A DNA stretch of 64,000 bases. It comes from Nitrospirota bacterium (GTDB taxonomy: Bacteria > Nitrospirota > Nitrospiria > 2-01-FULL-66-17). This document shows, one piece after another, positions 6,783-47,942 of the stretch. The translations under genes and the position numbers were made by a program. Location of the stretch: positions 46,612 through 110,611 of the forward strand of contig JBMOMC010000002.1 of assembly GCA_049325335.1 (NCBI GenBank). The letters are read 5' to 3'. Each line of letters starts with the position of its first letter. The first letter of the stretch is position 1. The notes beneath the pieces were generated by a model. The model did no database searches. It had not been told where the DNA came from and worked only from the letters and a program-made list of their open reading frames with translations.

Positions 6783-7946
6783 TCAGGCCGGCGCGCGCAT
6801 CGCGTCGATGAGGATCTGCGCGACCTCGGCGCGGGAGAACTCCGGGGGCGGCATTTGGCCCGTACTCAACATTTCCCGGACTTTGGTCCCGGAGAGCGCG
6901 ACGTGGTTGGTCGGGTCGTGCGGGCAGGTCTTGGACGAGGCCATGCTCCCGCACGTTTTGCAGAAAAACGTGTTGTCGAAGAATAATGGCGTGATCCCCA
7001 GTTCGCCGTCCTTGAATTCCCCGAAAATGTGGTGAGCGTCGAACGACCCGTAGAAGTTGCCGACCCCCGCGTGATCGCGCCCTACGATAAAGTGGGTACA
7101 CCCGTAGTTCTTACGCACCAGGGCGTGAAAGATCGCCTCGCGCGGTCCGGCGTAGCGCATGGCCGCCGGCAGCACCCCGAGCAGGGTCCGGTTCTTGGGG
7201 TAGTAGTTCGCCAGCAATGCCTGATAACAGCGCATCCGCACGTTCGCCGGAATGTCGTCGGATTTGGTTTCGCCCACCAATGGGTGGATGAAGAGCCCGT
7301 CCACGATTTCGAGCGCGCATTTCTGGATGTACTCGTGCGCCCGATGAATGGGGTTTCGGGTCTGAAAACCCACCACGGTTTTCCAGCCCCGTTCCGCGAA
7401 CGCCTTGCGGGTGTCCGCGGGGTCCAGGCGGTTCTCGTGAAAATCCGCGTGGGTTTGCCGTCGCAACACGTCGACTTTGCCGCCCAACAAGACCTCACCG
7501 CGTTTGAACAAGTAGTCGACGCCGGGATGCTTGCGATCTTCGGTGCGGTAGATCGAGCGCGCGGCTTGGGCCTTGTCGCGTTGGTAACGCTCTTCCAAGT
7601 GCAGGATCGCCACGATCGTCCCGCTCTCGTCGGTCAGGGCCGCGTCACGGCCGTCCTTCAGGGCTGCGGCCTGGCCGTGATCCACCGCCAGGATGATCGG
7701 CAGGCTCCACGGCAAACCGTTGGCCAGATGCATGGCGTCGCGCACGCTCTCGTAGTCCTTGCGTCCCATGAACCCTTCGATGGGGCTGTAGGCGCCGGTG
7801 GCGATCAAGTCGAGATCGGACCGTTCCCGCGCGTTCAGCGCGATCTTCGGCATGTCGGCGGCTCGGCGTTCTAGGTCGGCTTGTTGTTCGGGCGGGACCA
7901 TTCGATTGATCAGGACGCCGCCGTGGGGGATGGATTGAATAGACAT
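6783..7946 (-). CDS. sat: sulfate adenylyltransferase (ATP sulfurylase)
   Basis: 387 aa; QTRNPIHRAHE and GRDHAGVG motifs characteristic of homo-oligomeric ATP sulfurylase. Confidence 0.9.
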   Translation of the reverse strand: MSIQSIPHGGVLINRMVPPEQQADLERRAADMPKIALNARERSDLDLIATGAYSPIEGFMGRKDYESVRDAMHLANGLPWSLPIILAVDHGQAAALKDGRDAALTDESGTIVAILHLEERYQRDKAQAARSIYRTEDRKHPGVDYLFKRGEVLLGGKVDVLRRQTHADFHENRLDPADTRKAFAERGWKTVVGFQTRNPIHRAHEYIQKCALEIVDGLFIHPLVGETKSDDIPANVRMRCYQALLANYYPKNRTLLGVLPAAMRYAGPREAIFHALVRKNYGCTHFIVGRDHAGVGNFYGSFDAHHIFGEFKDGELGITPLFFDNTFFCKTCGSMASSKTCPHDPTNHVALSGTKVREMLSTGQMPPPEFSRAEVAQILIDAMRAPA

Positions 7947-8063: not shown

Positions 8064-10499
8064 TCAGGACGCCTTGTTCTCGATCACCAGCTTGTAGTGA
8101 TCCCCTTCCTGCTCCATGGACACGACGCGGTAGCCGTCGGCCTTCACGCTGCGCGGCACGTTCTCGGCGGGCTCGCCCGCGTCCAACAAGACTTCGAGGA
8201 TTTGCAGGGGATCCATTTCTTCCAATTGGAGCTTGGTTTTGACGTAGTTCATGGGACAGGCCACGCCCAACAGGTCCATTTTGATGGTCGGCGCGGTCGC
8301 GGGCTGAGCCGGAGTAGTCGAGGCGGATGGCGCCGGAGTCGTCTCCGCCTGCGAGCCCTGCGCGACCTTGAGCGAGGCGTCGATCTTGGCGAACGCGGTC
8401 CGGCACGCGTCCGCGAGCGCCTTGGCATCGGCCACGAACCGGCGGGCTTCGTCGAGGGTGATGTGCGATTTGACCGCCGCGCTCCGCTGGATCACGGCCT
8501 CGTACCGATCGCGCGGTACCACGCCCTTGTCCACCATGCGTTGCGAGAATTCCTTGAGCACCAATTCATGGCTGGTTGGCTCGATCGCTTGGGTCACCAA
8601 CAATCCCTTGGCCGCGGCCACGATGCCCAGTTCAGCCCGCATCACCGCGTCAACGGGCTTGTGTTTCTCGATGAGCACGCTGGCGTGCGCCAATTCGTAC
8701 TTGGAGTCTTCCAAGTGTTGTTCCACCATGTTAATGACGCCGCCTGCGCACTCGCCCGCGCCCGCATCCTCCAAGGAGAACGGGGTGTAGGCCCCGTAGT
8801 CCAGGTACTGCGACGGCGCGTCCGCGTGGGACGGCAAGGTGGTGTACGGTTCGAGCGCGGCCGTGATCGGGGCTTTGCCCACGCGGTCCACGAACGCGGT
8901 GAACGATTCGCCGGCTTGACGGTGATCGCGGTAGTACTCCAAGAGCGCGTCCACGACTTCCGGGAGTCGTTTGGCCGGGTACTTACCGCCCGGCAGACCG
9001 AACGCCACGCCGTGATCCGTGGATCGGCCGCCCAGGTGCAACTGGTACGCAGGGATCAACTGCCCGTCGATGCGGTGCCCGAGGCCGTGGAACCCGATTG
9101 ACGCGATGTGATGTTGGGCGCAGGAGTTGGGGCACCCGCTGACTTTGATGTCGATGCCCTTGAGGTCCTCGGCAAAAGCCTTGCCGTTGTGCGCCAATTG
9201 TTCACTGAGCGCGAGCCCGACCCCCTTGGACGAGGTGATGCCCAGACCGCAGGTGTCGGCGCCGGGGCACGTGACCACGTCGCCGACGCGGTCGGCGCCC
9301 GGCGTGCCCAACCCGATCGCGGTGAGCGCCTCGTGCAGCACGAGCAAATCCGCGTCCGCCACCCAGCGCAGGAGAAAGTTCTGAGTCACGGTGACCCGAA
9401 TGCTGCCGTGCGCGAACCGCTCCGTGATGTCGGCCAAACCGCGCAATTGCGCCGTGGTCAAGTCCCCGATCGGCAACGTGACCAATGCCGCGGAGTAGCC
9501 GGCCTGTTTTTGCGGTTTCACGTTGGTGGCCTGCCACGCCTCGAACGCGTGCGAGCGCGACCCGTTGGACGGCGGGCGCTTGGACCCGTTGGTGGGCACC
9601 GGCTCCGACATCGGTGCGAACGCGGCCAGCGTCGCGGCGTCGCGGCCTTCGCATACGAACGCGTACTCCTCAGCGTACATGGCGTAGAACTTCTCGAATC
9701 CGCCTTTTTCAATCAGGAACTTGAGTCGGGCCAGGCTGCGGTTCTTACGGTTGCCGTGGCGGTTGAACACCCGGAGCACGGCTTCACAACGCGGGCGCAA
9801 CTCCGACGCGGGCACCCACTCTTCCAGCAGATAGGGTCGTTTGGGGCTGGGCCCCAAGCCGCCGCCGACCGTGAGCCGGAATCCGATCTCTTCGCGGCCG
9901 TTCACCGTGCGTTTCACGGCCAACACGCCGAAGTCATGGATGCCGGTGAGCGCGCAATCGCTCGCGCAGCCCGAAAACGCGATCTTGAACTTGCGGGGCA
10001 GATTCTCGCACACGGGGTTGCGCAGAAAATGCATGGCCACGCCGTGGGCGTAGGGCGTCACGTCCACCACTTCGTCGCGGCAAATGCCCGCGTAGGGACA
10101 GGCGGTGACGTTGCGGACCGTGTTGCCGCACGCCTCGCGGGTGGTCAGGCCCACCTCCGCGAGTTGCCGCATGATCGCGGCGGTGTATTCGAGTTTGATG
10201 TAGTGGAGCTGAATGTCTTGGCGCGTAGTCAGGTGGGCCACGCCTCGTGAGTAGCGATCGCCGATGTCCGCGACGCGACGAAGTTGAGGCGCGGTCATCC
10301 CGCCGAACGGGATCTTGATGCGCACCATCTGCACGCCGTCTTGCCGTTGGCCGTAGATGCCGTGTTGCAACCGGAACCGTCGAAAGACCTCGGGATGGAT
10401 CTCGCCGCGCAGGAAACGCTGCGTTTCCTGTTCGTAGTTGGCGATCTCCTCCTCGATGTCAGGAGGAATGGTGTGCGTCGCGATTGTTGCCTGTGCCAT
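8064..10499 (-). CDS. sir: assimilatory sulfite reductase (sirohaem/4Fe-4S, ferredoxin-type) with C-terminal TusA-like domain
   Basis: Nitrite/sulfite reductase repeat pattern with cluster Cys (CPGADTCG, CPNSCAQHH); last ~75 aa IKMDLLGVACPMNYVKTK... resemble TusA with a Cys-Pro motif; ATG at 10499 preceded by GGAGG, ORF-track start 10565. Confidence 0.8.
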   Translation of the reverse strand: MAQATIATHTIPPDIEEEIANYEQETQRFLRGEIHPEVFRRFRLQHGIYGQRQDGVQMVRIKIPFGGMTAPQLRRVADIGDRYSRGVAHLTTRQDIQLHYIKLEYTAAIMRQLAEVGLTTREACGNTVRNVTACPYAGICRDEVVDVTPYAHGVAMHFLRNPVCENLPRKFKIAFSGCASDCALTGIHDFGVLAVKRTVNGREEIGFRLTVGGGLGPSPKRPYLLEEWVPASELRPRCEAVLRVFNRHGNRKNRSLARLKFLIEKGGFEKFYAMYAEEYAFVCEGRDAATLAAFAPMSEPVPTNGSKRPPSNGSRSHAFEAWQATNVKPQKQAGYSAALVTLPIGDLTTAQLRGLADITERFAHGSIRVTVTQNFLLRWVADADLLVLHEALTAIGLGTPGADRVGDVVTCPGADTCGLGITSSKGVGLALSEQLAHNGKAFAEDLKGIDIKVSGCPNSCAQHHIASIGFHGLGHRIDGQLIPAYQLHLGGRSTDHGVAFGLPGGKYPAKRLPEVVDALLEYYRDHRQAGESFTAFVDRVGKAPITAALEPYTTLPSHADAPSQYLDYGAYTPFSLEDAGAGECAGGVINMVEQHLEDSKYELAHASVLIEKHKPVDAVMRAELGIVAAAKGLLVTQAIEPTSHELVLKEFSQRMVDKGVVPRDRYEAVIQRSAAVKSHITLDEARRFVADAKALADACRTAFAKIDASLKVAQGSQAETTPAPSASTTPAQPATAPTIKMDLLGVACPMNYVKTKLQLEEMDPLQILEVLLDAGEPAENVPRSVKADGYRVVSMEQEGDHYKLVIENKAS

Positions 10500-10522
10500 G
10501 CGTGGTTCCTCCCGCGAACGGG

Positions 10523-11269
10523 TCAGCGGCTGGCCGTCGCCTTGGACCCGCTGTGCAACCCGCACTCTTTATGTTCCGGTGACTCCCACCACCACCGGCC
10601 CGCCCGGACATCCTCGCCGGGTTTGATCGCGCGCGTGCACGGCGCGCAGCCGATGCTGGGGAATCCCTGATCGTGCAGCTTATTATAGGGCACTTTATTG
10701 GTTTTGATGTACTCCCACACCTGGGACTCGGACCAGTGGATCAAGGGGTTGAGCTTGGCGATGCCGTTGTGCCCGGCGTCGTGCTCGATCATCGGCATGT
10801 CCGCGCGCGTGACGGCTTGGGCGCTTCGCAGTCCCGTGATCCACGCTCGCAACCCGGAGAGGGCCCGACCCAGGGGCTCGACCTTGCGCACACCGCAGCA
10901 CTCCTTGCGGTTCTCGATGCTTTGATAGAACAGGTTCACGCCCTTGGCTCGCACCATGGACTCGACCGCCGGGGCCTGCGGGAAGTAGGTCTCGATCGAC
11001 ACGCCGTAGCGATCCCGGACCGCGTCCATGACCTCGTAGGTCTCCGAGTGCAGGCGTCCGGTGTCCAAACAGAAGATCCTGGGCGTTCGGTGGAGTTTAC
11101 ACAACATGTCGACCAGCACCACGTCTTCCGCGCCGAAGCTGCACGCGAGCGAGACCTGCGAACCGAACTCGTTGAGCGCCCACTTGAGCACGACTTCGGC
11201 CGGTTGCACGGTGTATTGTTGGTTCAAGGTTTTGAGTTGTTCTTGCGTGTACAACGTAGCGGTGCTCAT
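10523..11269 (-). CDS. cysH: adenylylsulfate (APS) reductase, thioredoxin-dependent, Fe-S type
   Basis: PAPS/APS reductase fold; CC...CxxC pairs (ECCGVRK, CAPC) typical of the Fe-S-containing APS-reducing form. Confidence 0.85.
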   Translation of the reverse strand: MSTATLYTQEQLKTLNQQYTVQPAEVVLKWALNEFGSQVSLACSFGAEDVVLVDMLCKLHRTPRIFCLDTGRLHSETYEVMDAVRDRYGVSIETYFPQAPAVESMVRAKGVNLFYQSIENRKECCGVRKVEPLGRALSGLRAWITGLRSAQAVTRADMPMIEHDAGHNGIAKLNPLIHWSESQVWEYIKTNKVPYNKLHDQGFPSIGCAPCTRAIKPGEDVRAGRWWWESPEHKECGLHSGSKATASR

Positions 11270-17220: not shown

Positions 17221-19008
17221 GTGGCTATACTTGGCCGCGTCGCGAGGGGAGCCGTTTGGTCGGTCTTCCTCGCGCTCTTACTTATCGCAGACATGGTGCA
17301 CGAACCCCTCAAGCCGGCATCTGTTGGAGCCCAGCTGGCACCCGAAAATCCTTTGGTCGAGTCCGCCCGCGAGGTGATGCGCGGGTTGGTCAAGGCCGTC
17401 AAAGCGTCGAAGATGTATCTGCCGGAGCACGAGATTTGCCGGAAGTTCCGAGACGATTTTGCAGGGCGGCTGTTGCGGCATCTGGACGAACAGGGCGACC
17501 TGGCGCTGACGGTCAAGGGGTGCGAGTTCTATGTCGGAGACACGCCGGTGTATGAGGAGCCCAACCGGTTCGAGAATCTGGCGTTTCGGTGTTCGTCGGA
17601 CGGCCTTTGTGAATTGGTCCTCCACCAGGGGCTGACGCGCGCAGACCTCGACCGGTTGTTGGATGTGCTCACGTCCGACGCGCGGCCGCTGGACAACGAC
17701 ATTGTCACTAGGTTGTGGGAGCAGCCGATTCCGCACGTCACGTATGAAGTGGCCGAGGTCGATGAAGCCTCGGATCGCGAGGTGGCGCTGTCATCCCGAC
17801 CGCCGGGCGCGAGATCGTTGTCCGAAGCCGCTGATGACGCTCCAGGGGCCGGGGCGCCCGCTCCTGAGCCGGAGGTCATTCCCGACTCGCTGCGTCATGA
17901 CAGTCCGGTGTTCACGCTGACGGATCAGGACATCGAGTTGCTGCAACGGCAAGTGGTGGAAGACAGCACGCAGGATTACGTGGGGCAGTTGATCGATATT
18001 CTGACGTCGATTCTGATGTTGGACGACGATGAGCAGTCGTTTCTGGAAGTGTTGCAGGTGTTGGACGACATTGTGGCCGCCAGCGTCACGCAGGATCGGT
18101 TCGAGCGCGCCAACGATATCGTGAGCCGGTTGTCGGCGTTGCGGGACGACGAGGTCAAGGTCTCGGCGCGCAGTCGCGAGTTGATTCGCGTAGTCTGGAC
18201 CCAGATGGGGAGTTGGGAGCGCGTGGCGCCCTTGGGGAATTCCCTCAGTCGGCAAGGCGCGTGGGAGTCGGACGCCATTGCGCGCTATCTGATCCAACTG
18301 CCGTCTTCCGCCGTGGACTCGCTGATCACTCTGCTCGATCACGTGCAGACCGCCAAAGGGCGACGGATCATTTGCGACGCGTTGACCGCGTTTGCGGGCG
18401 AGGCGCTGGACGCCATGCTCTCGCGGCTTCCGGAGGCGCCTTGGTACGTGGCGCGCAATCTGATCTATGTTCTGGGGCGCGTGAAGGATCCTCGTGCTCA
18501 GCCGGCATTGGAAACGTTCATGGGGCATGCCGATGTGCGCCTTCGCCGCGAAACGCTCAAGGCGTTGGAAGCGCTCGGCGCCGAGCGGCTGGCCGAGGCG
18601 CTTCCCCAGTGGTTGGGTGATGATGACGACGGGGTGCGACTGCACGTGCTTCGTTTGGCGCGCCGTCATCCATCGCGGGATCTTCTGGCGGCCTTGATCG
18701 CGGCGATCAATGACCGCGGGTTTGCCCACCGCAAGGACGCGGAACAGCGCGAGTGGTTTGATACGCTCGCGGATGTTGGGGGCGACGCGGCGTTGTCGCT
18801 GATCCGGCCGTGGTTGGAGCTGGGACGCGGGTGGCGGCAACTCTGGTCGGCGCGGCACGATGCGCGGGCGCGGCATGCCGTGGCGCTGGTGCGGCGAGTC
18901 GGGTCCTCCGCCGCGGTGGCGCTCTTGCGGGAAACCGTCGCGTCCGCGCGAGGGGACATCCGCGAGGAAGCGCGCCGCGCCCTGCAGGACCTGGAGCGTG
19001 CGGCGTGA
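17221..19008 (+). CDS. HEAT-repeat protein
   Basis: Repeated HEAT/PBS-lyase-like units in the C-terminal half; GTG start; stop overlaps next gene start. Confidence 0.7.
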   Translation: MAILGRVARGAVWSVFLALLLIADMVHEPLKPASVGAQLAPENPLVESAREVMRGLVKAVKASKMYLPEHEICRKFRDDFAGRLLRHLDEQGDLALTVKGCEFYVGDTPVYEEPNRFENLAFRCSSDGLCELVLHQGLTRADLDRLLDVLTSDARPLDNDIVTRLWEQPIPHVTYEVAEVDEASDREVALSSRPPGARSLSEAADDAPGAGAPAPEPEVIPDSLRHDSPVFTLTDQDIELLQRQVVEDSTQDYVGQLIDILTSILMLDDDEQSFLEVLQVLDDIVAASVTQDRFERANDIVSRLSALRDDEVKVSARSRELIRVVWTQMGSWERVAPLGNSLSRQGAWESDAIARYLIQLPSSAVDSLITLLDHVQTAKGRRIICDALTAFAGEALDAMLSRLPEAPWYVARNLIYVLGRVKDPRAQPALETFMGHADVRLRRETLKALEALGAERLAEALPQWLGDDDDGVRLHVLRLARRHPSRDLLAALIAAINDRGFAHRKDAEQREWFDTLADVGGDAALSLIRPWLELGRGWRQLWSARHDARARHAVALVRRVGSSAAVALLRETVASARGDIREEARRALQDLERAA

Positions 19009-20474
19009 CGCGCGGCGGGACTCCTCATCACGCGGCGCCCAAACTGTTCGATGCGGTCAAGGGCAGTCACATCCGAGACGAGAACCTGCACCGGATCGGC
19101 AAACGCCTCGTGTATCAAGTTCACATTCTCCTCAAGACCGCGCACATCCATTTGGCGGGCAACGTGGCGCTGAGTCAATCCGCGGACCGGCTGGTCAAGA
19201 CCGTCGTGGAGGTGCACGACTGGCGGGCCGAGCCCGTGTTGCGCCAGGACGGCGATCATGTATACCTCGATGACATTCGGCTCAAGGTTGATCTGGAAGG
19301 GTACATCGGGTTCAGCGAAGTGATCGCCGCTATGCAGGCGCGCGGGGTGGGAAGCGTTCGGTTCGACGCGGGCCTGAGCCCTGGAGACGTCATCGCGTTC
19401 GCGCACGAGTGGGCGACCGCCGCGACCACGACCGCGGAGGAACTGGGCGCGGCCCTGACCCGCGTTGGGGTGTCGCACGTGGAGGTTGCCCCGCCGCTGT
19501 CGGCCCGCGCGAAGCCGTCCCGCGAACACGAGAGCCAGAAAGCGGTGGCCAAACGCACCTACTTCCGCACGATCTCCGCCGTCGCGGAGGTGATGGAGAG
19601 CGTCAAACTCAAACAGGCGGTGGGCGTACGAAAGTCCAAACGCGTGGTGCAGGGCCTCGTGGACAACCTGTTGCAGGATGAGAACACCTTGCTGGGTCTC
19701 ACCACGCTGCGAAGCCACGACGAATACACGTACAGCCATTGCGTGAACGTCTGTATCCTCGCGCTCTCGATCGGTCAGCGGCTGGGTTATGAACGGACGC
19801 ACCTGTCCGAACTCGGCGTAGCCGCCCTGTTCCACGACGTGGGGAAGACGGACATTCCACTGGAGATCCTGAACAAGGCGGGGGATTTCACGCCGGAGGA
19901 CTGGCGGGTCATTCGGCGGCATCCCGTGTATGGCGTGAAAAGCCTGTTGCGCCTCAAGGGGCTCGACGACGTGTCCACGAAGATCGTGATCGCGGGATTC
20001 GAGCATCACCTCAATTATGACTTGTCGGGGTATCCCAAGATCGCAGTGCCGCGCAAACTCACCTTGTTCGGGCGGATCATCTCGCTCGCGGATTGTTACG
20101 ACGCCATGACCGCCTCGCGCGTGTACAGCCGGGTGCCGCTGTCGCCCGACAAGGCGTTGAGCCTCATGGCGGCCAAGGCCGGGACGGTGTACGACCCGTT
20201 ATTGCTCAAGGTGTTCGCCAACACGATGGGCGTGTACCCGGTGGGGACGATTGTGCGGTTCGACACCGGGGAACTGGCGGTGGTCGTCGGTGGCCACCAG
20301 TCCGCGGATCGCCGCGCGCATCCATTGGTCAAACTTATTCGTGACGCCTCGGGCCGCGAGGTGGACGGGGACACGATCGACCTCGCGGCCGCGAACGCGC
20401 GTCCGACGCGTCGGATCGTGGACACCGCGGACGCCCAGTCGCTCGGCATCGACCTCGCCCGGTACTTTCTGTAG
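19005..20474 (+). CDS. HD-GYP domain phosphohydrolase (putative c-di-GMP phosphodiesterase) with N-terminal sensor region
   Basis: HD motif (ALFHDVGK), HHLNYDLSGYP (GYP motif); GTG 19005 overlaps the HEAT gene stop (GTGA). Confidence 0.8.
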   Translation: MTRGGTPHHAAPKLFDAVKGSHIRDENLHRIGKRLVYQVHILLKTAHIHLAGNVALSQSADRLVKTVVEVHDWRAEPVLRQDGDHVYLDDIRLKVDLEGYIGFSEVIAAMQARGVGSVRFDAGLSPGDVIAFAHEWATAATTTAEELGAALTRVGVSHVEVAPPLSARAKPSREHESQKAVAKRTYFRTISAVAEVMESVKLKQAVGVRKSKRVVQGLVDNLLQDENTLLGLTTLRSHDEYTYSHCVNVCILALSIGQRLGYERTHLSELGVAALFHDVGKTDIPLEILNKAGDFTPEDWRVIRRHPVYGVKSLLRLKGLDDVSTKIVIAGFEHHLNYDLSGYPKIAVPRKLTLFGRIISLADCYDAMTASRVYSRVPLSPDKALSLMAAKAGTVYDPLLLKVFANTMGVYPVGTIVRFDTGELAVVVGGHQSADRRAHPLVKLIRDASGREVDGDTIDLAAANARPTRRIVDTADAQSLGIDLARYFL

Positions 20475-20600
20475 CCGCAGCGCGGTCTCCCCTTGATTTT
20501 CCCTCAGGCTGTGGTGTATCTCTATCCCGGTTTTGGGGACGGGTGTCCCCCTCCGGAATATGCATCCAACTGACATGAGAGAGGGGAGGTGATCGTAGTG

Positions 20601-20897
20601 ATGAAGAAGCTCGTGGTGGTGCCCTTGATTGCCGCGCTGTTGATGCTGCCCTTGACCGGGTGTGAATCCAAAAAGCTCAAAGAGGAGAACGCGAGTCTGA
20701 AACAACAAGTGGACTCGTTGACCCAAGAGAAGAACGGGTTGGCGGCGAAGACCGACGAATTGAGCAAGTCCAACATGGACCTCCAGGCGAAGATCGGCGA
20801 CTTGGAAAAGAAGGTGGAAGAGTTGTCAAAGCCGAAACCGGCTCCGAAGCCCGCGGCGAAGGCGCCCGCCAAGAAAGCTCCGGCGAAGAAGAAGTAA
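20601..20897 (+). CDS. Lpp-like coiled-coil lipoprotein with Lys/Ala/Pro-rich tail
   Basis: Signal peptide + lipobox LTGC, heptad-like segment, tail KPKPAPKPAAKAPAKKAPAKKK; GGAGG 11 nt upstream of ATG 20601. Confidence 0.6.
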   Translation: MKKLVVVPLIAALLMLPLTGCESKKLKEENASLKQQVDSLTQEKNGLAAKTDELSKSNMDLQAKIGDLEKKVEELSKPKPAPKPAAKAPAKKAPAKKK

Positions 20898-20921
20898 GGC
20901 GGTTGTCGATGATGTGTCGCG

Positions 20922-20946
20922 AGGGCGGACCGATTCGGTCCGCCCT
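20922..20946 (+). terminator. hairpin terminator after lipoprotein gene
   Basis: AGGGCGGACCG att CGGTCCGCCCT, perfect 11-bp stem, followed by T-containing tract. Confidence 0.55.
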
Positions 20947-21043
20947 TCGTGTTGTGGCTCCGCGTCATTCGTGGGGTGGCGTAGGGCTGCTGGGTTCAGG
21001 GCTTTACACGGTTCTGCGGCCGGCAGTAGGATAGCGGGACCCG

Positions 21044-22540
21044 ATGGTTACGCCACGCCTCCGTTCCGCCGCCCCGCGCGGTCCGTTCCGCGCGTTCCAA
21101 CGTCTTCATCTCACCACCAAACTCCTCTTGATGATGGGAGTGCTGACCGTGCTATCGCTCGGTTCGGTCTTCCTGTTCTATGCGTATAATGAACGACTGC
21201 TCATTCGAGAGATTACCGAGAATGTGAACGATCTCTCATCCGCGATCCAGATCAGCGGCGAGGAATTGACCAGCCAGGCGTCCACCAACGAGGGCCGGCT
21301 TCAAGATTATGTGGGCCGGTTGACTAAAAAGGGCGTGCGGGAAATTTCCATCATCAGTAACTCCGAAAAGGTCATTGCCAGCTCAAACCCGACTCGCGTG
21401 GGCCAGAAAATCAACCCGCATCGCAAGGATTTGTTCATCACGGCGCGACTGGGCGAGGGCAACGCCGAAGGCGTTCAGACCCATAATCTCTTGGTGCCGA
21501 TTGTCGTGGACAAGCAACAGGTCGGCTACGCCCACATCATGTTGGTGATGGACGATTACGAGCGGCTGCTCCGGACGAATCTGATCAAACGGTTGATGGT
21601 GACGGGCGGGATCTTCGGGCTCGGAGCCGGACTGGTGCTGTTTTTGTCGTGGCGGTACACGCGTCCCATCTATCAGGTCGTTGCGGTCGCCAAGCAAGTG
21701 GCCGCGGGCAACCTGTCGGCCACGCTTCCTCAAGACCGCGGCGACGAAATCGGCGAGCTGATTGCCAGCGTGAACGAGATGGTCGATCGGCTCAGAGAGC
21801 AGCGCGCCTTGGAAGACCGGCTGCGCGAGGCCGAGCGGTTTTCGGCGTTGGGGCAGCTCGCGGCTGGGATTGCCCACGAGATCCGCAATCCACTGAATTT
21901 CATCAGCCTGTCCCTCGACCGCGTTCGAGATCTCGTCAAGCGGGAGGATGGCGGCCGATCCGATGAGATCCCGGCGCTCCTCGGGAGTATCAAGGGCGAG
22001 GTGTTCCGGCTCAATCGCCTGATCGATAGTTTTTTGAAGTACGGGCGTCCGGTGAAGCTGGCGCGGCAGTGGGTGTCGGTGCGCGCGCTGCTGGACGACG
22101 TGATCGCGCTGGTCCGCCCGAAAGCGGATGAAGCCCGCGTGGCGCTGTCGGTGGACGGGGAGTCCCTTCCGCCGTGTTTCGTGGATCCCGAGCAGATCAC
22201 CCGGTGCGTCATGAACGTGATGCTCAATGCCTTTCAGTCGATGCCGGACGGCGGGAGACTGCGCGTGGTCTTGGCCTTGGAGCCCGGGGGCGACGAGTCC
22301 GTCGGGCGGTTCGTGCGGCTGGCAATCGGGGACACCGGGGCCGGTATCGGAGAAGAGGACTTGTCCCGGGTGTTCGAACCGTATTTTACGACCAAGAAGC
22401 TGGGCATCGGTCTGGGACTAGCCCTGACCAAGCAGATTATCGAAGAACACGGCGGGACGATCGCGATTGCCAGCCGGATCGGCGAGGGAACCACGGTCTC
22501 GATGCGGGTGCCGGTCGGACGCGACGAGGCGCGCGGATGA
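21044..22540 (+). CDS. sensor histidine kinase (TM-HAMP-HisKA-HATPase)
   Basis: H-box HEIRNPLNFIS, N/G boxes (DTGAGIGEED, GIGLGL). Confidence 0.85.
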   Translation: MVTPRLRSAAPRGPFRAFQRLHLTTKLLLMMGVLTVLSLGSVFLFYAYNERLLIREITENVNDLSSAIQISGEELTSQASTNEGRLQDYVGRLTKKGVREISIISNSEKVIASSNPTRVGQKINPHRKDLFITARLGEGNAEGVQTHNLLVPIVVDKQQVGYAHIMLVMDDYERLLRTNLIKRLMVTGGIFGLGAGLVLFLSWRYTRPIYQVVAVAKQVAAGNLSATLPQDRGDEIGELIASVNEMVDRLREQRALEDRLREAERFSALGQLAAGIAHEIRNPLNFISLSLDRVRDLVKREDGGRSDEIPALLGSIKGEVFRLNRLIDSFLKYGRPVKLARQWVSVRALLDDVIALVRPKADEARVALSVDGESLPPCFVDPEQITRCVMNVMLNAFQSMPDGGRLRVVLALEPGGDESVGRFVRLAIGDTGAGIGEEDLSRVFEPYFTTKKLGIGLGLALTKQIIEEHGGTIAIASRIGEGTTVSMRVPVGRDEARG

Positions 22541-23901
22541 CGCGATCGCTGCTGGTGGTGGACGACGAGCGCTCGCAACGCGAGATTCTGGAGCGTATTC
22601 TTCGCGACGAGGGGTACGAGGTGCGCACCGCGGGGACGGCGCGGGAGGCGGCCTCGATTCAGCGCCGTGGTCCGTGTGACGTCGTCCTGAGCGACGTGAA
22701 GATGCCGGACACCGAGGGGGTGTCCGTGCTGAACGATCTGCTCGGCGCGGCGCCAAACTCGACCGTGATCCTGATGACCGCGCACGGAACGATCGACTCC
22801 GCGGTGGACGCGATGAAAAAGGGCGCGTTCGACTACCTGACGAAGCCGCTGGATAAGGATGAGTTGCTGATCACCATCGCGCGGGCGTTCGAGCGCGTGA
22901 GCCTCTTGCGGGAGAACCGGCGGCTGCGCCAAGAACTAGATGACCGCGTTCGGGTCGGAAGCCTCATCGGACACCACCCGTCGATGCAGGACATCATCAA
23001 GGTCATCAAGAAGGTGGCGCCCAGCGCGTCGACCGTCTTGATCGTGGGTGAGAGCGGCACCGGCAAAGAGCTCATTGCGCGCGCGATTCATGATGAGAGC
23101 CCCCGACGGGAGCTGCCGTTTCAGGCGATCAACTGCGCGGCCATTCCCGATCCGCTGATGGAAAGCGAACTGTTCGGCTATGAGAAGGGGGCGTTCTCCG
23201 GCGCGCAGACTCGCAGCATCGGCCTCTTCGAGGCGGCTCACCGCGGGACGATCTTCCTGGATGAGATCGGCGACCTCGGGCTCGGTCTGCAGGCGAAAAT
23301 CTTGCGCACGTTGCAGGAGCGGACGATTCGCCGGGTCGGGGGACAAGAAGAAGTCCCGATCGACGTTCGCGTGGTGGCGGCGACCAACAAAGACCTCGAA
23401 GCGGAGATCACCGCGGGTCGGTTCCGTCTGGATCTGTTCTATCGCCTCAACGTGGTGACGCTCCGGGTGCCGCCGCTTCGCGAGCGTACGGCGGACATCC
23501 CGTACCTGGTCGACGCGTTTCTTCACAAACACGAGGGTATGGACCGTGGCGCCAAGACCATCTCGAAAGACGCACTGCGCGTGCTGATGGACTATCCGTG
23601 GCCGGGCAACGTCCGTCAGTTGGCCGCGACCATCGAGCGCGCGGTACTGCTCTGCGAGAAAGATGAAATTCAGGTGGATGATCTCCCGCCGGAAATCCGT
23701 CGGCCGCCGTCTCCGCTTCCCACCCCGTTTCAACTCCCGGTCGGCGGCGTGTCGCTCGATCAGCTCGAACGATCCTTGATCGAACAGGCGATGGCTCAGA
23801 GTCATGGAGTGATCGCCAAGGCCGCCCGTCTCCTCGGGCTCTCATACAAGACGCTCCAATATCGGCTCGAGAAGTTGCGGGCCGCCGACCCGCCGACCTG
23901 A
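22537..23901 (+). CDS. sigma-54-dependent response regulator (NtrC family)
   Basis: Receiver domain, AAA+ domain with GESGTGKE and GAFSGA, C-terminal HTH; ATG overlaps kinase stop (ATGA). Confidence 0.9.
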   Translation: MTRSLLVVDDERSQREILERILRDEGYEVRTAGTAREAASIQRRGPCDVVLSDVKMPDTEGVSVLNDLLGAAPNSTVILMTAHGTIDSAVDAMKKGAFDYLTKPLDKDELLITIARAFERVSLLRENRRLRQELDDRVRVGSLIGHHPSMQDIIKVIKKVAPSASTVLIVGESGTGKELIARAIHDESPRRELPFQAINCAAIPDPLMESELFGYEKGAFSGAQTRSIGLFEAAHRGTIFLDEIGDLGLGLQAKILRTLQERTIRRVGGQEEVPIDVRVVAATNKDLEAEITAGRFRLDLFYRLNVVTLRVPPLRERTADIPYLVDAFLHKHEGMDRGAKTISKDALRVLMDYPWPGNVRQLAATIERAVLLCEKDEIQVDDLPPEIRRPPSPLPTPFQLPVGGVSLDQLERSLIEQAMAQSHGVIAKAARLLGLSYKTLQYRLEKLRAADPPT

Positions 23902-24014
23902 ACACCCCAAATGGGGTAGGCGGTCGCCGCATTTCGGGTATCGCGGCGGCCACGCGTTCGGGCCACGGTTTGCAACTCTCTCGATTGCCGAGTGTTTTAA
24001 CCCCGTCATGCTCC

Positions 24015-24030
24015 TGGCACGCCCTATGCT
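24015..24030 (+). promoter_or_regulatory. sigma-54 (-24/-12) promoter candidate
   Basis: TGGCACGcccTATGCT: GG and GC at correct 12-nt spacing, about 35 nt upstream of ATG 24066. Confidence 0.5.
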
Positions 24031-24065
24031 GTAGCGAGCTGTTTCAAGAAAGGAGGTGATGTCAG

Positions 24066-24329
24066 ATGAAGCAGTGGCTCAAGAGTGTGTGCGCGATGGC
24101 GGCGGTGTTGGTGTTCGCGGCGGCGGCGTATGCCGGGATGACCTCGGTCAGCGGCGAGGTCGCCAAGTACGAAGCCGGGAAGACCCTCTCGGTCAAAGAC
24201 GCCAAGGGCGCGGTGGCGATGTTCGAGATCTCCAAGGACACGAAGGTCGAAGGCGAGGTGAAAGTTGGCGCCAAGGTGTCCGTGGAGGCTGATGGAAACA
24301 AGGCCCATTCGGTCAAAGCGGCCAAATAA
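24066..24329 (+). CDS. small secreted protein of unknown function
   Basis: 87 aa, signal peptide (AAVLVFAAAAYA), strong AGGAGG RBS. Confidence 0.6.
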   Translation: MKQWLKSVCAMAAVLVFAAAAYAGMTSVSGEVAKYEAGKTLSVKDAKGAVAMFEISKDTKVEGEVKVGAKVSVEADGNKAHSVKAAK

Positions 24330-24364
24330 CGGTCGGGTCTGATTCCGGCACGGTACGGTAGGGG

Positions 24365-24393
24365 CGCCGATCCTCTCGGGAGGGGGATCGGCG
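24365..24393 (+). terminator. hairpin after small secreted protein gene
   Basis: CGCCGATCC / 11-nt loop / GGATCGGCG. Confidence 0.45.
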
Positions 24394-24470
24394 GCGCGCG
24401 CCGCACGGGCTTGCTTCCTTCTACCGTACCTGCCGGACGGCCTTGGCGTGAACACGACGGGAGACGCAAG

Positions 24471-24806
24471 ATGATGATGCGACGGGTGATGCCGTGGGTG
24501 GCGATCGGGCTGGTGGCCGTGTTGCCGATCCTCGGAGGTTGTGAAAGCAAACAACAACGGGAGGACAACGCAAAACTCAAGGCGCAGGTCCAAGCGTTGA
24601 CGCAGGAGAAGGGCGAGTTGCAACGCAAGGTGGACGGCGCGCAACAAGAGCAGGCTCAGCTCAAGACGAAAGTCGATGAGTTGACGAAAAAAATCAGCGA
24701 CGCGGAGGCCAAGCTGGCCGCGGCGGCCAAGCCCGCTCCCAAGGCGGCGAAAGTAACGGTCAAGCCGGCGGCCAAACCCGCCCCCAAACCGGCGGTCAAA
24801 AAGTAA
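24471..24806 (+). CDS. Lpp-like coiled-coil lipoprotein, paralog of 20601..20897
   Basis: Lipobox LGGC followed by ESK as in paralog; shared LTQEK motif; tail KPAPKAAKVTVKPAAKPAPKPAVKK. Confidence 0.6.
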   Translation: MMMRRVMPWVAIGLVAVLPILGGCESKQQREDNAKLKAQVQALTQEKGELQRKVDGAQQEQAQLKTKVDELTKKISDAEAKLAAAAKPAPKAAKVTVKPAAKPAPKPAVKK

Positions 24807-24873
24807 CCGTATCGAGCATCGGTTCTACCGAAGGGGCTTGCCTGGTCCGGCAGGCCCCTCGTGTATCAAGACC

Positions 24874-24901
24874 GAACAACGATTGACAGCAGCCGATTCG
24901 C
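24874..24901 (+). promoter_or_regulatory. sigma-70-type promoter candidate upstream of FHA gene
   Basis: TTGACA - 16 nt - TATATT, about 45 nt upstream of GTG 24946. Confidence 0.4.
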
Positions 24902-24945
24902 CTCTATATTTGTGATGGCTGGATCTGCCGCCCGAGGAAACGATC

Positions 24946-25323
24946 GTGTTAGACCCCGAACAAACCATTCGTCCGGACCTTTCCCACCCGTATTTGCCGG
25001 GGCGAGAACCCGCGTATCCGTTGTTGCGCGTGTTGAGCGGGCCGCTGGAGGGGCGCGAGTTTACCCTGACGGCCGATCGGTACGCGGTGGGCCGTGACGT
25101 GCAATCGGATATCGTCATCGCGCAGCCGGAGGTCTCTCGCCGGCACGCCGAGATCATTCGGATGGCCAGCGAATACGTGGTGATGGACCTCAAAAGCGCC
25201 AACGGGATTTACATCAATAATTTGAAACTCGATCGAGCCGTGTTGCACCACGGCGACGTGTTCCAGATCGGCTCCTGTGTGTTTCAGTTCATCTGGAGCC
25301 GACACCAGTCGTCACCGCCGTAA
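24946..25323 (+). CDS. FHA domain protein
   Basis: FHA signature GR...DIVI...VSRRHAEI...DLKSANGIYIN...L..GDVFQIG. Confidence 0.75.
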   Translation: MLDPEQTIRPDLSHPYLPGREPAYPLLRVLSGPLEGREFTLTADRYAVGRDVQSDIVIAQPEVSRRHAEIIRMASEYVVMDLKSANGIYINNLKLDRAVLHHGDVFQIGSCVFQFIWSRHQSSPP

Positions 25324-25326
25324 CGC

Positions 25327-26952
25327 ATGGGCCGGCGCACACCCGCCAAGGGACGGTCGCGACGCCCGAGGGCGTCTCCACGGACGGCCGCGACGCCGTC
25401 GAAGCTCTCCACGCTCCTGGAACACCTCCCCGGCATGATGTATCGGTCGCGGGCCGACGGGCGTCACACGATCGAGTTCGCGAGCGAGGGGTGTTTCGAC
25501 TTGACCGGGTATCGCCCCGAGGCGTTGACGGCCGGGATGACGAGGCCGGATCTGGTCCATCCCGACGACCAATGGTCCGTGGAGCGCGCCATTGGAGACG
25601 CGGTGGGCGCCAAACGCGCGTTTCGGGTGGAGTACCGATTGCGGACCGCGTCCGGGGAGACGCGGTGGGTCTCCGAGCAGGGGCGGGGAGTGTACACCCG
25701 TCGCGGCGCGCTCACCGCGGTGGAAGGCTACGTCAGCGACATCACGGAGCAGAAATCGGCCGAGCGGTTGCTGGCCGAGCAGGCGATCCGCGATGCGCTG
25801 ACCGGTTTGTACAACCGCCGATTTTTCGACGAACGCATCGACATTGAGTTGGCCCGCGCCAGACGCAACGGCCACGCCGTCGCGTTTTTGATGTGCGATC
25901 TTGATCATTTTAAATCCATCAACGACAGCCGGGGGCATCAGATCGGCGACGAGGTGCTCAAGGCCGTGGCCAACGTGATCATGGCGGCCACGCGCGGCAG
26001 CGACATGGTCGTGCGGTGGGGGGGCGATGAAGTCGTCATCGTATTGTCCGAAACGAACGAAGCCGGCGGCCGTATCGTGGCCGACCGCATTCGGCGGGCG
26101 GTGTGTCGGCTGAGCGAGGCCCGGGACATCCGGTTCGACATCAGCATCGGGATCGCGGTGTTCCCGAGCCACGGCGAATCCGTGAGCCAGATCATTCGGC
26201 TCGCCGACCGCGCGCTGTATATCGCCAAAAAAAGCGGGGAGCGCATCCATGTCGGGGACGAACACTACCGGTTGGACGAACAGGCCATCAAAGTGGTGTT
26301 TCAGCCGATTGTGGACGTCTGGTCCGACCAGGTGTTGGGATACGAAGCCCTGAGCCGAGACCCCGAGGGCCGGTTGAGCGTGGCCGAGTTGTTTCGCAAG
26401 TACCACGTGGTGGGTCAACTCGACGAACTCAAAACGATCTGTTTCAAGGAGCAGTTGCGGGTCGCGGAGGAACTCCGATTGAACCGGATTTTCCTGAACG
26501 TGGATTTCCACGTCTTGGAACATCTGGAACCGCCGCCCAAGCCGGACGGCACCGACGTCATCGTCGAAATCTCCGAGCGCGACGCGCTCCACGACGTGGA
26601 GCGGCATTTGGAGATCGCGGTGAAGTGGCGCGCGTGCGGCTACAAGTTCGCCATCGACGATTTCGGCGCGGGCTTCGTGTCGCTGCCGTTCGTGGCGCGG
26701 CTGATGCCCGAGTACATCAAGATCGACCGATCGCTGGTGCTCCAAGCCGTGGCGTCGGACACATTTAAGGGGTTTTCCAAACATCTCCTAATCGCCTTGA
26801 GGACCTATGCCACCGAGGGGATCATCGCCGAGGGGATCGAAACGGAACGAGAACTGGCGGCGATGAAGGGGATCGGGATTTTTATCATCCAAGGGTTTCT
26901 TTTGGGGCGTCCCCGGGCATTGGGGCCGGACCAGTCCGCCGACGCCGCGTAG
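25327..26952 (+). CDS. PAS-GGDEF-EAL protein (variant GGDEV motif; EAL residues intact)
   Basis: PAS region, GGDEF domain with RWGGDEV, EAL domain with YEALSR, DDFGAGF, EGIETE, QGF. Confidence 0.85.
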   Translation: MGRRTPAKGRSRRPRASPRTAATPSKLSTLLEHLPGMMYRSRADGRHTIEFASEGCFDLTGYRPEALTAGMTRPDLVHPDDQWSVERAIGDAVGAKRAFRVEYRLRTASGETRWVSEQGRGVYTRRGALTAVEGYVSDITEQKSAERLLAEQAIRDALTGLYNRRFFDERIDIELARARRNGHAVAFLMCDLDHFKSINDSRGHQIGDEVLKAVANVIMAATRGSDMVVRWGGDEVVIVLSETNEAGGRIVADRIRRAVCRLSEARDIRFDISIGIAVFPSHGESVSQIIRLADRALYIAKKSGERIHVGDEHYRLDEQAIKVVFQPIVDVWSDQVLGYEALSRDPEGRLSVAELFRKYHVVGQLDELKTICFKEQLRVAEELRLNRIFLNVDFHVLEHLEPPPKPDGTDVIVEISERDALHDVERHLEIAVKWRACGYKFAIDDFGAGFVSLPFVARLMPEYIKIDRSLVLQAVASDTFKGFSKHLLIALRTYATEGIIAEGIETERELAAMKGIGIFIIQGFLLGRPRALGPDQSADAA

Positions 26953-47745: not shown

Positions 47746-47942
47746 AGCGTCCTCGTTTCTCGGGGTGAAGAGTGGGTACATGGCTCGTCGCATAGGTGCA
47801 AATCGCATGCGAGGCTCGGTGTGGAGCTCGATCGCGGCCGCGGGGGCGAAACGCTCGATTGCCGGCTTGTCGTTGTTCGAACATGGACATCGGATTCAAA
47901 AATGGTGATGACCCTTCCATGGGTAATTACCATCCGGTGATG

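Follow-up and report, generated by a model that had tools for sequence, protein, structure and literature searches.

Paralogous leucine-zipper lipoproteins with polycationic tails around a sigma-54 two-component system in Nitrospirota: a possible functional analogue of Braun lipoprotein

Several described systems offer points of comparison for lipoA and lipoB, two small lipoprotein genes that we describe here from a 64,000-nucleotide stretch of DNA of a Nitrospirota bacterium (contig JBMOMC010000002.1; the whole stretch is referred to below as the window). The first of these systems, Braun lipoprotein (Lpp), is an alanine-zipper trimer. In Escherichia coli it keeps the wall ~85 Å from the outer membrane (PMC12729407), and a survey with Pfam family PF04728 at its gathering threshold found Lpp only in the Aeromonadales, Alteromonadales, Enterobacterales, and Vibrionales, with other Gracilicutes depending on Pal/OmpA according to surveys that used the Lpp Pfam model (10.1101/2021.05.31.446380). 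The second, mycobacterial heparin-binding hemagglutinin (HBHA), carries K/A/P repeats (KAPAK and KKAAPA) after its coiled coil, and these form a disordered domain that binds a polyanionic sulfated glycan (PMC3293801). The others are sigma-54 two-component loci. In ZraPSR of the Enterobacteria, sigma-54 drives the expression of a small periplasmic protein whose gene adjoins those of a kinase and an NtrC-class regulator, and in QseE-QseG-QseF (GlrK-YfhG-GlrR) the lipoprotein QseG is encoded inside the sigma-54 two-component operon and controls the phosphorylation state of the kinase (PMC6075780). More generally, functions at the cell exterior, lipoproteins among them, are overrepresented in sigma-54 regulons (PMC3162934).

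In the window, lipoA and lipoB lie on the + strand in the order HEAT-repeat, HD-GYP, lipoA, histidine kinase, NtrC-class regulator, p87 (a small secreted protein), lipoB, FHA, and PAS-GGDEF-EAL. The base composition of the window (~63% G+C) is Nitrospirota-like, and the close relatives of this DNA are all metagenome-assembled genomes (MAGs) of Nitrospirota/Nitrospiria. We propose, with a probability that we put at roughly 40%, that the lipoprotein is an analogue of Lpp, in which a zipper rod carries a polycationic tail that lies on anionic peptidoglycan, and that one copy is constitutive while the other is controlled by sigma-54. The resemblance to Braun lipoprotein is, as far as we can judge, one of analogy only; the architecture and regulation of the lipoprotein, read from the sequences, are real and conserved.

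Each precursor begins with an n-region containing K/R and a hydrophobic core, followed by a core lipobox that reads L-T-G-C in lipoA and L-G-G-C (ILGG before the Cys) in lipoB. The strict PROSITE lipoprotein pattern matches lipoB and fails in lipoA solely through a Pro at position −4, which is common to all A-type orthologues. Lipidation of both proteins is predicted from the lipobox, and the mature N terminus in each case would be C-E-S-K. A leucine zipper of ~7 heptads follows, including the segment LTQEK in both proteins. In lipoA it occupies residues 26 to 75, with Leu at every seventh residue from L26 to L75. The d position is thus Leu (89% hydrophobic among 36 family members), and the a positions hold Asn30 (found in 32 of the 36 members), Val37, Lys44, Val/Ala51, Asn58, Val65, and Val72. 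A monomeric AlphaFold2 model built on the family alignment consists of one helix to residue 76 (pLDDT of >90 over approximately residues 30 to 70), followed by a disordered tail. Beta-branched residues and a conserved Asn at a, combined with Leu at d, are the classic dimer-specifying pattern of GCN4-type zippers, which suggests that this zipper is of the dimer type. From the Cys to the last heptad Leu, the A-type rod is 55 residues long; at 0.15 nm per residue it would measure ~8 nm. This is close to the length of mature Lpp.

The disordered tails of the two proteins are 23 to 29 residues long. That of lipoA (SKPKPAPKPAAKAPAKKAPAKKK) is composed entirely (100%) of K, A, P, T, S, and R, has a net charge of +9, ends in KKK, and contains KAPAK, KKAPAKKK, and KPAAK. 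That of lipoB (AAAAKPAPKAAKVTVKPAAKPAPKPAVKK) is 90% K/A/P/T/S/R, has a net charge of +8, and ends in VKK. An earlier note on this DNA, made from the sequence alone, had described two lipoprotein precursors with a lipobox followed by ESK, a coiled-coil core with LTQEK, and Lys/Ala/Pro-rich C termini ending in Lys, and each of these features is borne out, the coiled coil by both the heptad analysis and the AlphaFold2 helix. The KPAPK motif that it attributed to both tails is not literally present in both; what the tails share is composition and charge, not sequence.

The same note had taken the two proteins to be paralogues and had named low-complexity drift as what could undo that claim. BLASTP aligned lipoA and lipoB with 32 identities in 72 positions (44%; E = 7e-15). 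Because coiled coils align spuriously, we compared the Smith-Waterman score with a control in which lipoB was shuffled within each heptad position, so that register and composition were kept. The observed score was 123, versus 63 ± 9.5 in the shuffles (z = 6.3; shuffle maximum, 106; n = 5000). A score above those of all 5000 heptad-preserving shuffles argues that the similarity reflects paralogy, and on this sequence evidence lipoA and lipoB are true paralogues. Low-complexity or coiled-coil drift as the source of the similarity is ruled out by the shuffles together with the invariant C-E-S..N..LK motif. At the DNA level identity is low, and the extent of this divergence implies that the duplication is old.

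Word-indexed searches recovered 15 relatives of A type and 3 of B type, each from Nitrospirota or a metagenome. Orthologues of lipoA in Nitrospirota MAGs are 70 to 89% identical and always lie behind HEAT and HD-GYP genes, and B-type homologues were seen only 3′ of p87, in kinase-NtrC-p87-lipoB cassettes. In a profile search, 582 of 1.84 billion representatives matched, most of them long coiled-coil noise. When membership was limited to short, full-length, single-stretch matches, ~45 members with the same plan were obtained, one of them from a "Deltaproteobacteria bacterium" MAG; cluster look-up gave little other taxonomy, and the family is centered on Nitrospirota. A pattern scan also drew Lachnospiraceae/Clostridia loci (L021 to L031) that share the EN-x-x-LK-x-QV zipper segment; these were classed as coiled-coil noise. 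The family plan consists of a signal peptide, the motif G/A-C-[EQ]-S-[KQ]-x-L-[KQ]-[EQ]-E-N-x-x-L-K-x-Q-V-x-x-L-T-x-E-K, the zipper, and a basic K/A/P/T tail, and residues +2 to +4 after the lipobox Cys are an invariant E-S-K. Across ~65 members, the rod (from the Cys to the last hydrophobic residue) spans 48 to 87 residues, with a median of 59, and the medians for the tail are 19 residues in length and +7 in net charge. Across the family the tail varies in sequence and length but keeps its composition and charge, a pattern that marks a disordered polycation under selection; purifying selection appears to act on the architecture of the family and not on the sequence of the tail.

Profile searches of Pfam, NCBIfam, and the PDB placed the lipoproteins in no curated family and gave only subthreshold matches to generic coiled coils (bZIP, DivIC, ZapB, SA0632 lipoprotein, and Lpp/OprI). 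The best NCBIfam match was the staphylococcal SA0632 family lipoprotein (NF047408), at 37 bits versus a cutoff of 70 (30 of 36 members, subthreshold). Some relatives are annotated by JGI as "outer membrane murein-binding lipoprotein Lpp" or "CwlO-like," and the earlier note had likewise seen kinship with Braun lipoprotein. The searches do not support that kinship. The Pfam LPP model (PF04728) scored 17.4 bits against a cutoff of 29.1 and the Pfam Alanine_zipper model (PF11839) scored 16.7 against 23.1, each with lipoB only, and the NCBIfam Lpp/OprI model Ala_zip_lipo (NF040598) scored ~20 against 43 bits in 30 of 36 members. When the family profile was compared with the entire PDB, Lpp (1EQ7; E = 0.0033) appeared at approximately rank 45, after designed coiled coils, M protein, BAP31, keratin, GCN4, and vimentin. 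We rejected direct homology to Lpp because of these subthreshold scores and this generic coiled-coil ranking. What the family shares with Lpp/OprI is the format of a small lipoprotein (~75 to 90 mature residues) with a lipobox Cys, a single coiled-coil helix of ~55 residues, and a basic C terminus ending in Lys, which would make it a plausible membrane-wall spacer. It differs in its heptads, which have Val/Asn/Lys at a and Leu at d in the manner of GCN4 rather than the alanine zipper of the Lpp trimer; in its additional disordered K/A/P tail of 15 to 30 residues, which Lpp lacks; in having some members that end in Arg; in its host, Nitrospirota rather than Gammaproteobacteria; and in having one copy in a sigma-54 module. 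In the literature searched, no paper describes this family, and nothing specific on leucine-zipper or lysine-rich lipoproteins turned up; automatic annotation calls the members of the family "hypothetical" or, loosely, "Lpp." What sets it apart from other small coiled-coil envelope lipoproteins is its type of zipper, its polycationic tail, its OB-fold partner, and its control by sigma-54.

Between lipoA and lipoB, the earlier note had placed a sigma-54 two-component system together with its sigma-54-dependent target, and we found both there (Table 1). The regulator has the domains Sigma54_activat (E = 6.9e-70), Response_reg (5.4e-28), and HTH_8 (3.7e-14), and HAMP, HisKA, and HATPase_c were all detected in the kinase. 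The closest models were AtoS/ZraS for the kinase transmitter and AtoC/NtrC/ZraR for the regulator, all below cutoff, so that neither matched a named equivalog among AtoSC, ZraSR, NtrBC, and GlrKR (NCBIfam AtoC, 459 versus 714; ZraR, 375 versus 760). The stop codon of the kinase gene and the start codon of the regulator gene overlap in an ATGA sequence (22537 to 22540), which implies that the two are translationally coupled.

The predicted target is p87. Matches to the sigma-54 pattern in the window (20 with ≤2 mismatches, versus 25 expected) are not significant by themselves, and it is conservation that singles out the p87 promoter: in a 10-locus alignment, TGGCACG-N4-TGCT is invariant at the matching place in nine further loci (L004, L005, L008, L009, L012, L032, L033, L034, and, as a remnant, L002). 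A putative upstream activating dyad, also marked by invariant columns, lies ~80 to 110 nt upstream of this promoter, so that a GG-N10-GC (−24/−12) target promoter and an activator-type site both appear, by sequence, to precede p87. The dyad is also intact in L032 (approximately 6840 to 6880), L034, L033, and L009, where adjacent kinase and regulator genes are absent, which implies that in these genomes its activator is encoded at another site.

Within the window, neither lipoA nor lipoB was found to have a sigma-54 box ahead of it. Each gene has a good Shine-Dalgarno sequence. Upstream of lipoA, eight aligned Nitrospirota loci share invariant TT..GTAT...TAT columns within the conserved sigma-70-like element TTGATT...GTATnnnTAT, and the hairpin 3′ of lipoA is kept in L002, L032, and L034. 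A simple terminator and promoter scan missed hairpins that lack T-runs, and these were revealed by folding. The likely terminator after lipoB is one for which none of 200 shuffles was as stable as the native sequence. The p87-lipoB spacer contains a nested, conserved RNA structure, with one compensatory pair among four relatives, which could be a processing/stability element or an attenuator; an Rfam scan of positions 20300 to 25100 gave no match. Its inner hairpin survives in L002, although both flanking genes are gone there. Cotranscription of lipoB and p87 from the sigma-54 promoter is plausible.

p87 occurs only in Nitrospirota and has no Pfam or NCBIfam match. An AlphaFold2 model (pLDDT, 75) predicts a five-stranded OB-type barrel, for which the best fold match in the PDB was CusF (2qcp; E = 4.8e-3; TM scores of 0.56/0.61), followed by IF1-type OB folds. 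CusF, a periplasmic Cu/Ag metallochaperone, is like p87 a small secreted five-stranded barrel, but its match to p87 is a weak one, scarcely better in score than those of generic OB folds such as IF1. Metal binding by p87 is at most hinted at by the sequences. Distant homologues of p87 (L014 and L018 to L020) carry His residues and a Met-rich C terminus (VMEMKMEKK). The logic of the p87 locus, in which a kinase and a sigma-54 activator accompany a small periplasmic effector, is that of ZraPSR; the target here is an OB-fold barrel plus a lipoprotein, whereas ZraP is helical.

The region from 20862 to 24943 of the window is a presence/absence hot spot when compared with L001, L002 (1396 to 1872), L009, L013, L032, and L034, and seven gene orders were found overall. 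The order of the window, HEAT-HDGYP-lipoA-kinase-NtrC-[sigma-54]-p87-lipoB-FHA-GGDEF/EAL, recurs in L004 and L012 (and in part in L005 and L008). The second (L009, L032, and L034) is HEAT-HDGYP-lipoA-[dyad and sigma-54]-p87-FHA-GGDEF/EAL; the third (L002/3 and L013) is HDGYP-lipoA-FHA-GGDEF/EAL; and in the fourth (L001), HEAT-HDGYP-lipoA is followed by unrelated genes. In the fifth, found in the low-GC genomes of L014 and L019, the order is kinase-NtrC-lipoprotein-p87, the lipoprotein is ~45 to 50% identical, and a sigma-54 box, TGGCAT-N6-ATGCT (TGGCATAAAAAATGCT or TGGCATAAGATATGCT), lies directly before the lipoprotein gene; the kinase and regulator of this order are orthologous to those of the window, with 50% and 60% identity. 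The sixth (L018 and L020) consists of a Sua5-like gene, a sigma-70-like promoter, the lipoprotein gene, and p87, and the seventh (L015 to L017) consists of a Sua5-like gene and the lipoprotein gene. The lipoprotein gene adjoins p87 in 12 of 17 distinct Nitrospirota loci, and the two form a recurrent pair.

lipoA itself is kept without the kinase/regulator pair in L001, L002, L009, L013, L015 to L018, L020, L032, and L034. In L002, a 476-nt spacer takes the place of the 4.1-kb block and still holds the lipoA terminator, a −24 box (CTGGCACGCC), and the post-p87 hairpin. These promoter and hairpin remnants imply that the L002 lineage lost the kinase-NtrC-p87-lipoB block; a recent insertion of the block in the window is ruled out by the same remnants. 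The bracketing arrangement, correctly given in the earlier note, had been taken to mean that both lipoproteins are regulated envelope proteins. For the family this stands, given the sigma-54 box of L014 and L019, and it is plausible for lipoB. It does not extend to lipoA: because lipoA has its own sigma-70-like promoter and terminator and is kept where the kinase and regulator are absent, bracketing does not mean that both copies are regulated.

In the model that we favor, the lipoprotein would be processed by signal peptidase II, and its acylated Cys would then anchor it in a membrane. A leucine zipper over residues 26 to 75, parallel and in register and probably dimeric, would make up a rod of ~8 nm and present a disordered tail of 15 to 30 residues, with a net charge of +7 to +10 and the ending [KR][KR][KR], to a polyanionic envelope polymer. 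That polymer would most probably be peptidoglycan, bound mainly by multivalent charge, and the lipoprotein would serve as a membrane-wall strut or tether, a functional analogue rather than a homologue of Braun lipoprotein. lipoA, with its own sigma-70-like promoter and terminator, would be the constitutive copy. lipoB and p87 would stand behind the sigma-54 promoter and the dyad, on which the kinase and NtrC-type regulator encoded next to them would act, such that an envelope signal sensed by the kinase would raise the supply of the rod protein and of p87. The proposed tethering by lipoA and lipoB is open to direct test.

Several points weigh against this model. The charge of the tail would fit anionic phospholipid, periplasmic glucans, lipopolysaccharide, or extracellular polymers equally well. 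The invariant residues that follow the Cys, Glu at +2 and Ser-Lys at +3/+4, might direct sorting to either membrane. The dimer is deduced from heptad rules rather than from an oligomer model. The structured p87-lipoB spacer, which has no U-tract, makes read-through from p87 less than certain, and lipoB might have its own promoter. Finally, five lipoprotein loci are without p87 and most are without the kinase/regulator pair, which implies that any functional coupling is facultative.

The same rod could instead form a covalent, Braun-type tether, that is, an outer membrane lipoprotein in which the epsilon-amine of the C-terminal Lys is joined to meso-diaminopimelate by a YkuD L,D-transpeptidase. 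We regard this as unlikely, even though the 55-residue rod resembles Lpp and the KKK and VKK ends of lipoA and lipoB would suit it. Of 30 distinct Nitrospirota-type sequences, 25 end in Lys and 5 in Arg; position −2 is Lys in 26, Arg in 3, and Asn in 1, position −3 is Lys in 21, and virtually every sequence closes with three basic residues. From the composition of the tails, ~10 to 12 terminal Lys residues would be expected where 25 were observed, a count that ignores phylogenetic nonindependence. The basic residue at all 30 ends and the excess of Lys over expectation imply that a basic, mostly Lys C terminus has been selected. In Dickeya, attachment depends on one C-terminal Lys, which is also sufficient, and many substitutions are tolerated in the "Lpp box" before it (PMC12274547); Dickeya Lpp and OutB use Lys-Lys termini (PMC12729407). 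However, more than 20% of E. coli periplasmic proteins end in Lys (PMC12274547), and this frequency makes a terminal Lys weak evidence for wall attachment. The members that end in Arg (KKR, RKR, and AKR) could not be attached by a Lys-type L,D-transpeptidase, and among distant members the final residue is N, Q, D, P, or M. The absence of homology to Lpp/OprI and the confinement of PF04728 to four gammaproteobacterial orders (10.1101/2021.05.31.446380) also speak against a covalent tether. A scan for the YkuD catalytic motif over 299 kb (the window plus the Nitrospirota loci) found none, which is uninformative for whole genomes, and a literature search on Nitrospira L,D-transpeptidases found nothing specific. 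Attachment can follow other chemistries, through internal Lys21 in LimB27 and through a C-terminal Lys-Thr in Lpg1810 (PMC12729407). Taken together, we consider a covalent bond the less likely mode of contact between the lipoprotein and the wall.

A role in signaling seems to us more improbable still. According to this explanation, the lipoprotein, with or without p87, would be a periplasmic modulator of the adjacent histidine kinase, as QseG is for QseE or NlpE is for CpxA. QseG provides the precedent (PMC6075780), and the lipoprotein gene lies beside the kinase and NtrC genes in two gene orders separated by ~50% protein divergence (the window, L004, and L012 versus L014 and L019). Yet orthologues of lipoA persist in loci that have no kinase/regulator pair, and in L014 and L019 the position of the lipoprotein gene behind a sigma-54 promoter makes it an output of the system and not a cotranscribed sensor subunit. 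QseG differs, being larger, unrelated, cotranscribed with the kinase, and in control of it, whereas the lipoprotein here is either the output of a sigma-54 promoter (L014 and L019) or independent (lipoA). A featureless zipper with a polycationic tail also has no obvious ligand- or kinase-binding domain.

We think it quite doubtful that the lipoprotein is a surface or matrix protein in the manner of HBHA, with an exposed rod and a K/A/P tail that binds extracellular polysaccharide, DNA, or mineral in aggregation or biofilm formation. The architecture does match (PMC3293801): HBHA also has a hydrophobic N terminus, a coiled coil, and disordered Lys/Ala/Pro repeats, and in lipoA a coiled coil is likewise followed by HBHA-type K/A/P repeats, a match of architecture only. 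Genes of cyclic di-GMP (c-di-GMP) metabolism (HD-GYP and PAS-GGDEF-EAL) flank the locus. Nitrospirota typically live in flocs and biofilms, a mode of growth that would suit such a protein. But HBHA belongs to a mycolate envelope, which is of a very different type; it is no lipoprotein, its chain has about double the length and includes a linker domain, and its targets are host glycans. The c-di-GMP genes form transcription units separate from the lipoprotein genes, and we found no evidence of surface export of lipoproteins in Nitrospirota and recognized no export-signal motif. Least probable of all is a membrane-to-membrane bridge, in which the cationic tail would lie among the anionic phospholipid head groups of a second membrane and set the intermembrane distance without peptidoglycan, since, although the tail is strongly cationic and flexible and an ~8-nm rod plus an extended tail of ≤~6 nm could by our geometry span the periplasm, the tail has no hydrophobic or aromatic residues for membrane binding and would have to thread the peptidoglycan mesh, and we know of no precedent for such a bridge.

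To return to the strut or tether that we favor, a broader form of it would make the family the convergent, nonhomologous outer membrane-wall tether of Nitrospirota, a dimeric zipper whose tail is fixed covalently or by charge and whose dosage is set through a sigma-54 envelope-stress circuit that includes p87. Stated so fully, this seems improbable. If true, Lpp-type tethers would extend beyond four gammaproteobacterial orders, and an Lpp-type function would have been invented independently, with a testable candidate at hand, in nitrite-oxidizer-related Nitrospirota, for which, to our knowledge, there is almost no envelope genetics. The lipoprotein is probably abundant in the cell, and its apparent conditional control by sigma-54 would set the family apart from Lpp. 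Unexpected wall-attached proteins are still emerging, among them LimB27, OutB, and beta-barrels. Even with another ligand for the tail, a module of lipoprotein, OB-fold protein, kinase, and NtrC-type regulator would constitute a new envelope-directed sigma-54 regulon.

Table 1. Features of the lipoA-lipoB locus, in window coordinates
Feature	Position	Strand	Remarks
HEAT-repeat protein	17221-19008	+	upstream of lipoA
HD-GYP protein	ends 20474	+	upstream neighbor of lipoA
lipoA sigma-70-like promoter	20493-20525	+	TTGATT 20493-20498, GTATCTCTAT 20516-20525
lipoA	20601-20897	+	ATG 20601, stop 20897; 98-aa lipoprotein precursor
lipoA likely terminator	20918-20952	+	GC-rich hairpin, then UUCGUGUUGU; fold z −2.7
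Histidine kinase	21044-22540	+	periplasmic domain, HAMP, HisKA, HATPase_c
NtrC/AtoC/ZraR-class sigma-54 enhancer-binding response regulator	22537-23901	+	REC, AAA+, HTH_8
Putative upstream activating dyad	23905-23938	+	CCnnAAATnnGG-N10-CCnnATTTnnGG; invariant columns in 10-locus alignment
p87 sigma-54 −24/−12 promoter	24015-24030	+	TGGCACGcccTATGCT / TGGCACGCCCTATGCT; 36 nt before p87 start codon
p87	24066-24329	+	87-aa signal-peptide ORF; secreted
Nested RNA structure, p87-lipoB spacer	24352-24430	+	13-bp outer stem 24352-24364/24418-24430, inner hairpin 24367-24391, no U-tract
lipoB	24471-24806	+	ATG 24471, stop 24806; 111-aa lipoprotein precursor
p87-lipoB likely terminator	24833-24858	+	GC-rich hairpin; fold z −4.0
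FHA protein	24946-25323	+	downstream of lipoB
PAS-GGDEF-EAL protein	25327-26952	+	downstream of FHA gene

The neighborhood of lipoA is made up of conserved c-di-GMP genes, with HEAT and HD-GYP upstream (17221 to 20474) and FHA and PAS-GGDEF-EAL downstream (24946 to 26952). A strong match to a sigma-70-like promoter, TTGACA-16-TATATT (24883 to 24910), precedes the FHA gene. Elsewhere in the window, an 833-aa open reading frame at 8064 to 10565 on the − strand encodes NIR_SIR and NIR_SIR_ferr nitrite/sulfite reductase domains fused to a C-terminal TusA sulfurtransferase domain. An 831-aa open reading frame, also on the − strand (45313 to 47808), combines a middle domain matching hydrazine synthase alpha (HZS_alpha; E = 8e-20) with a C-terminal cytochrome c domain, which is unusual outside anammox bacteria.

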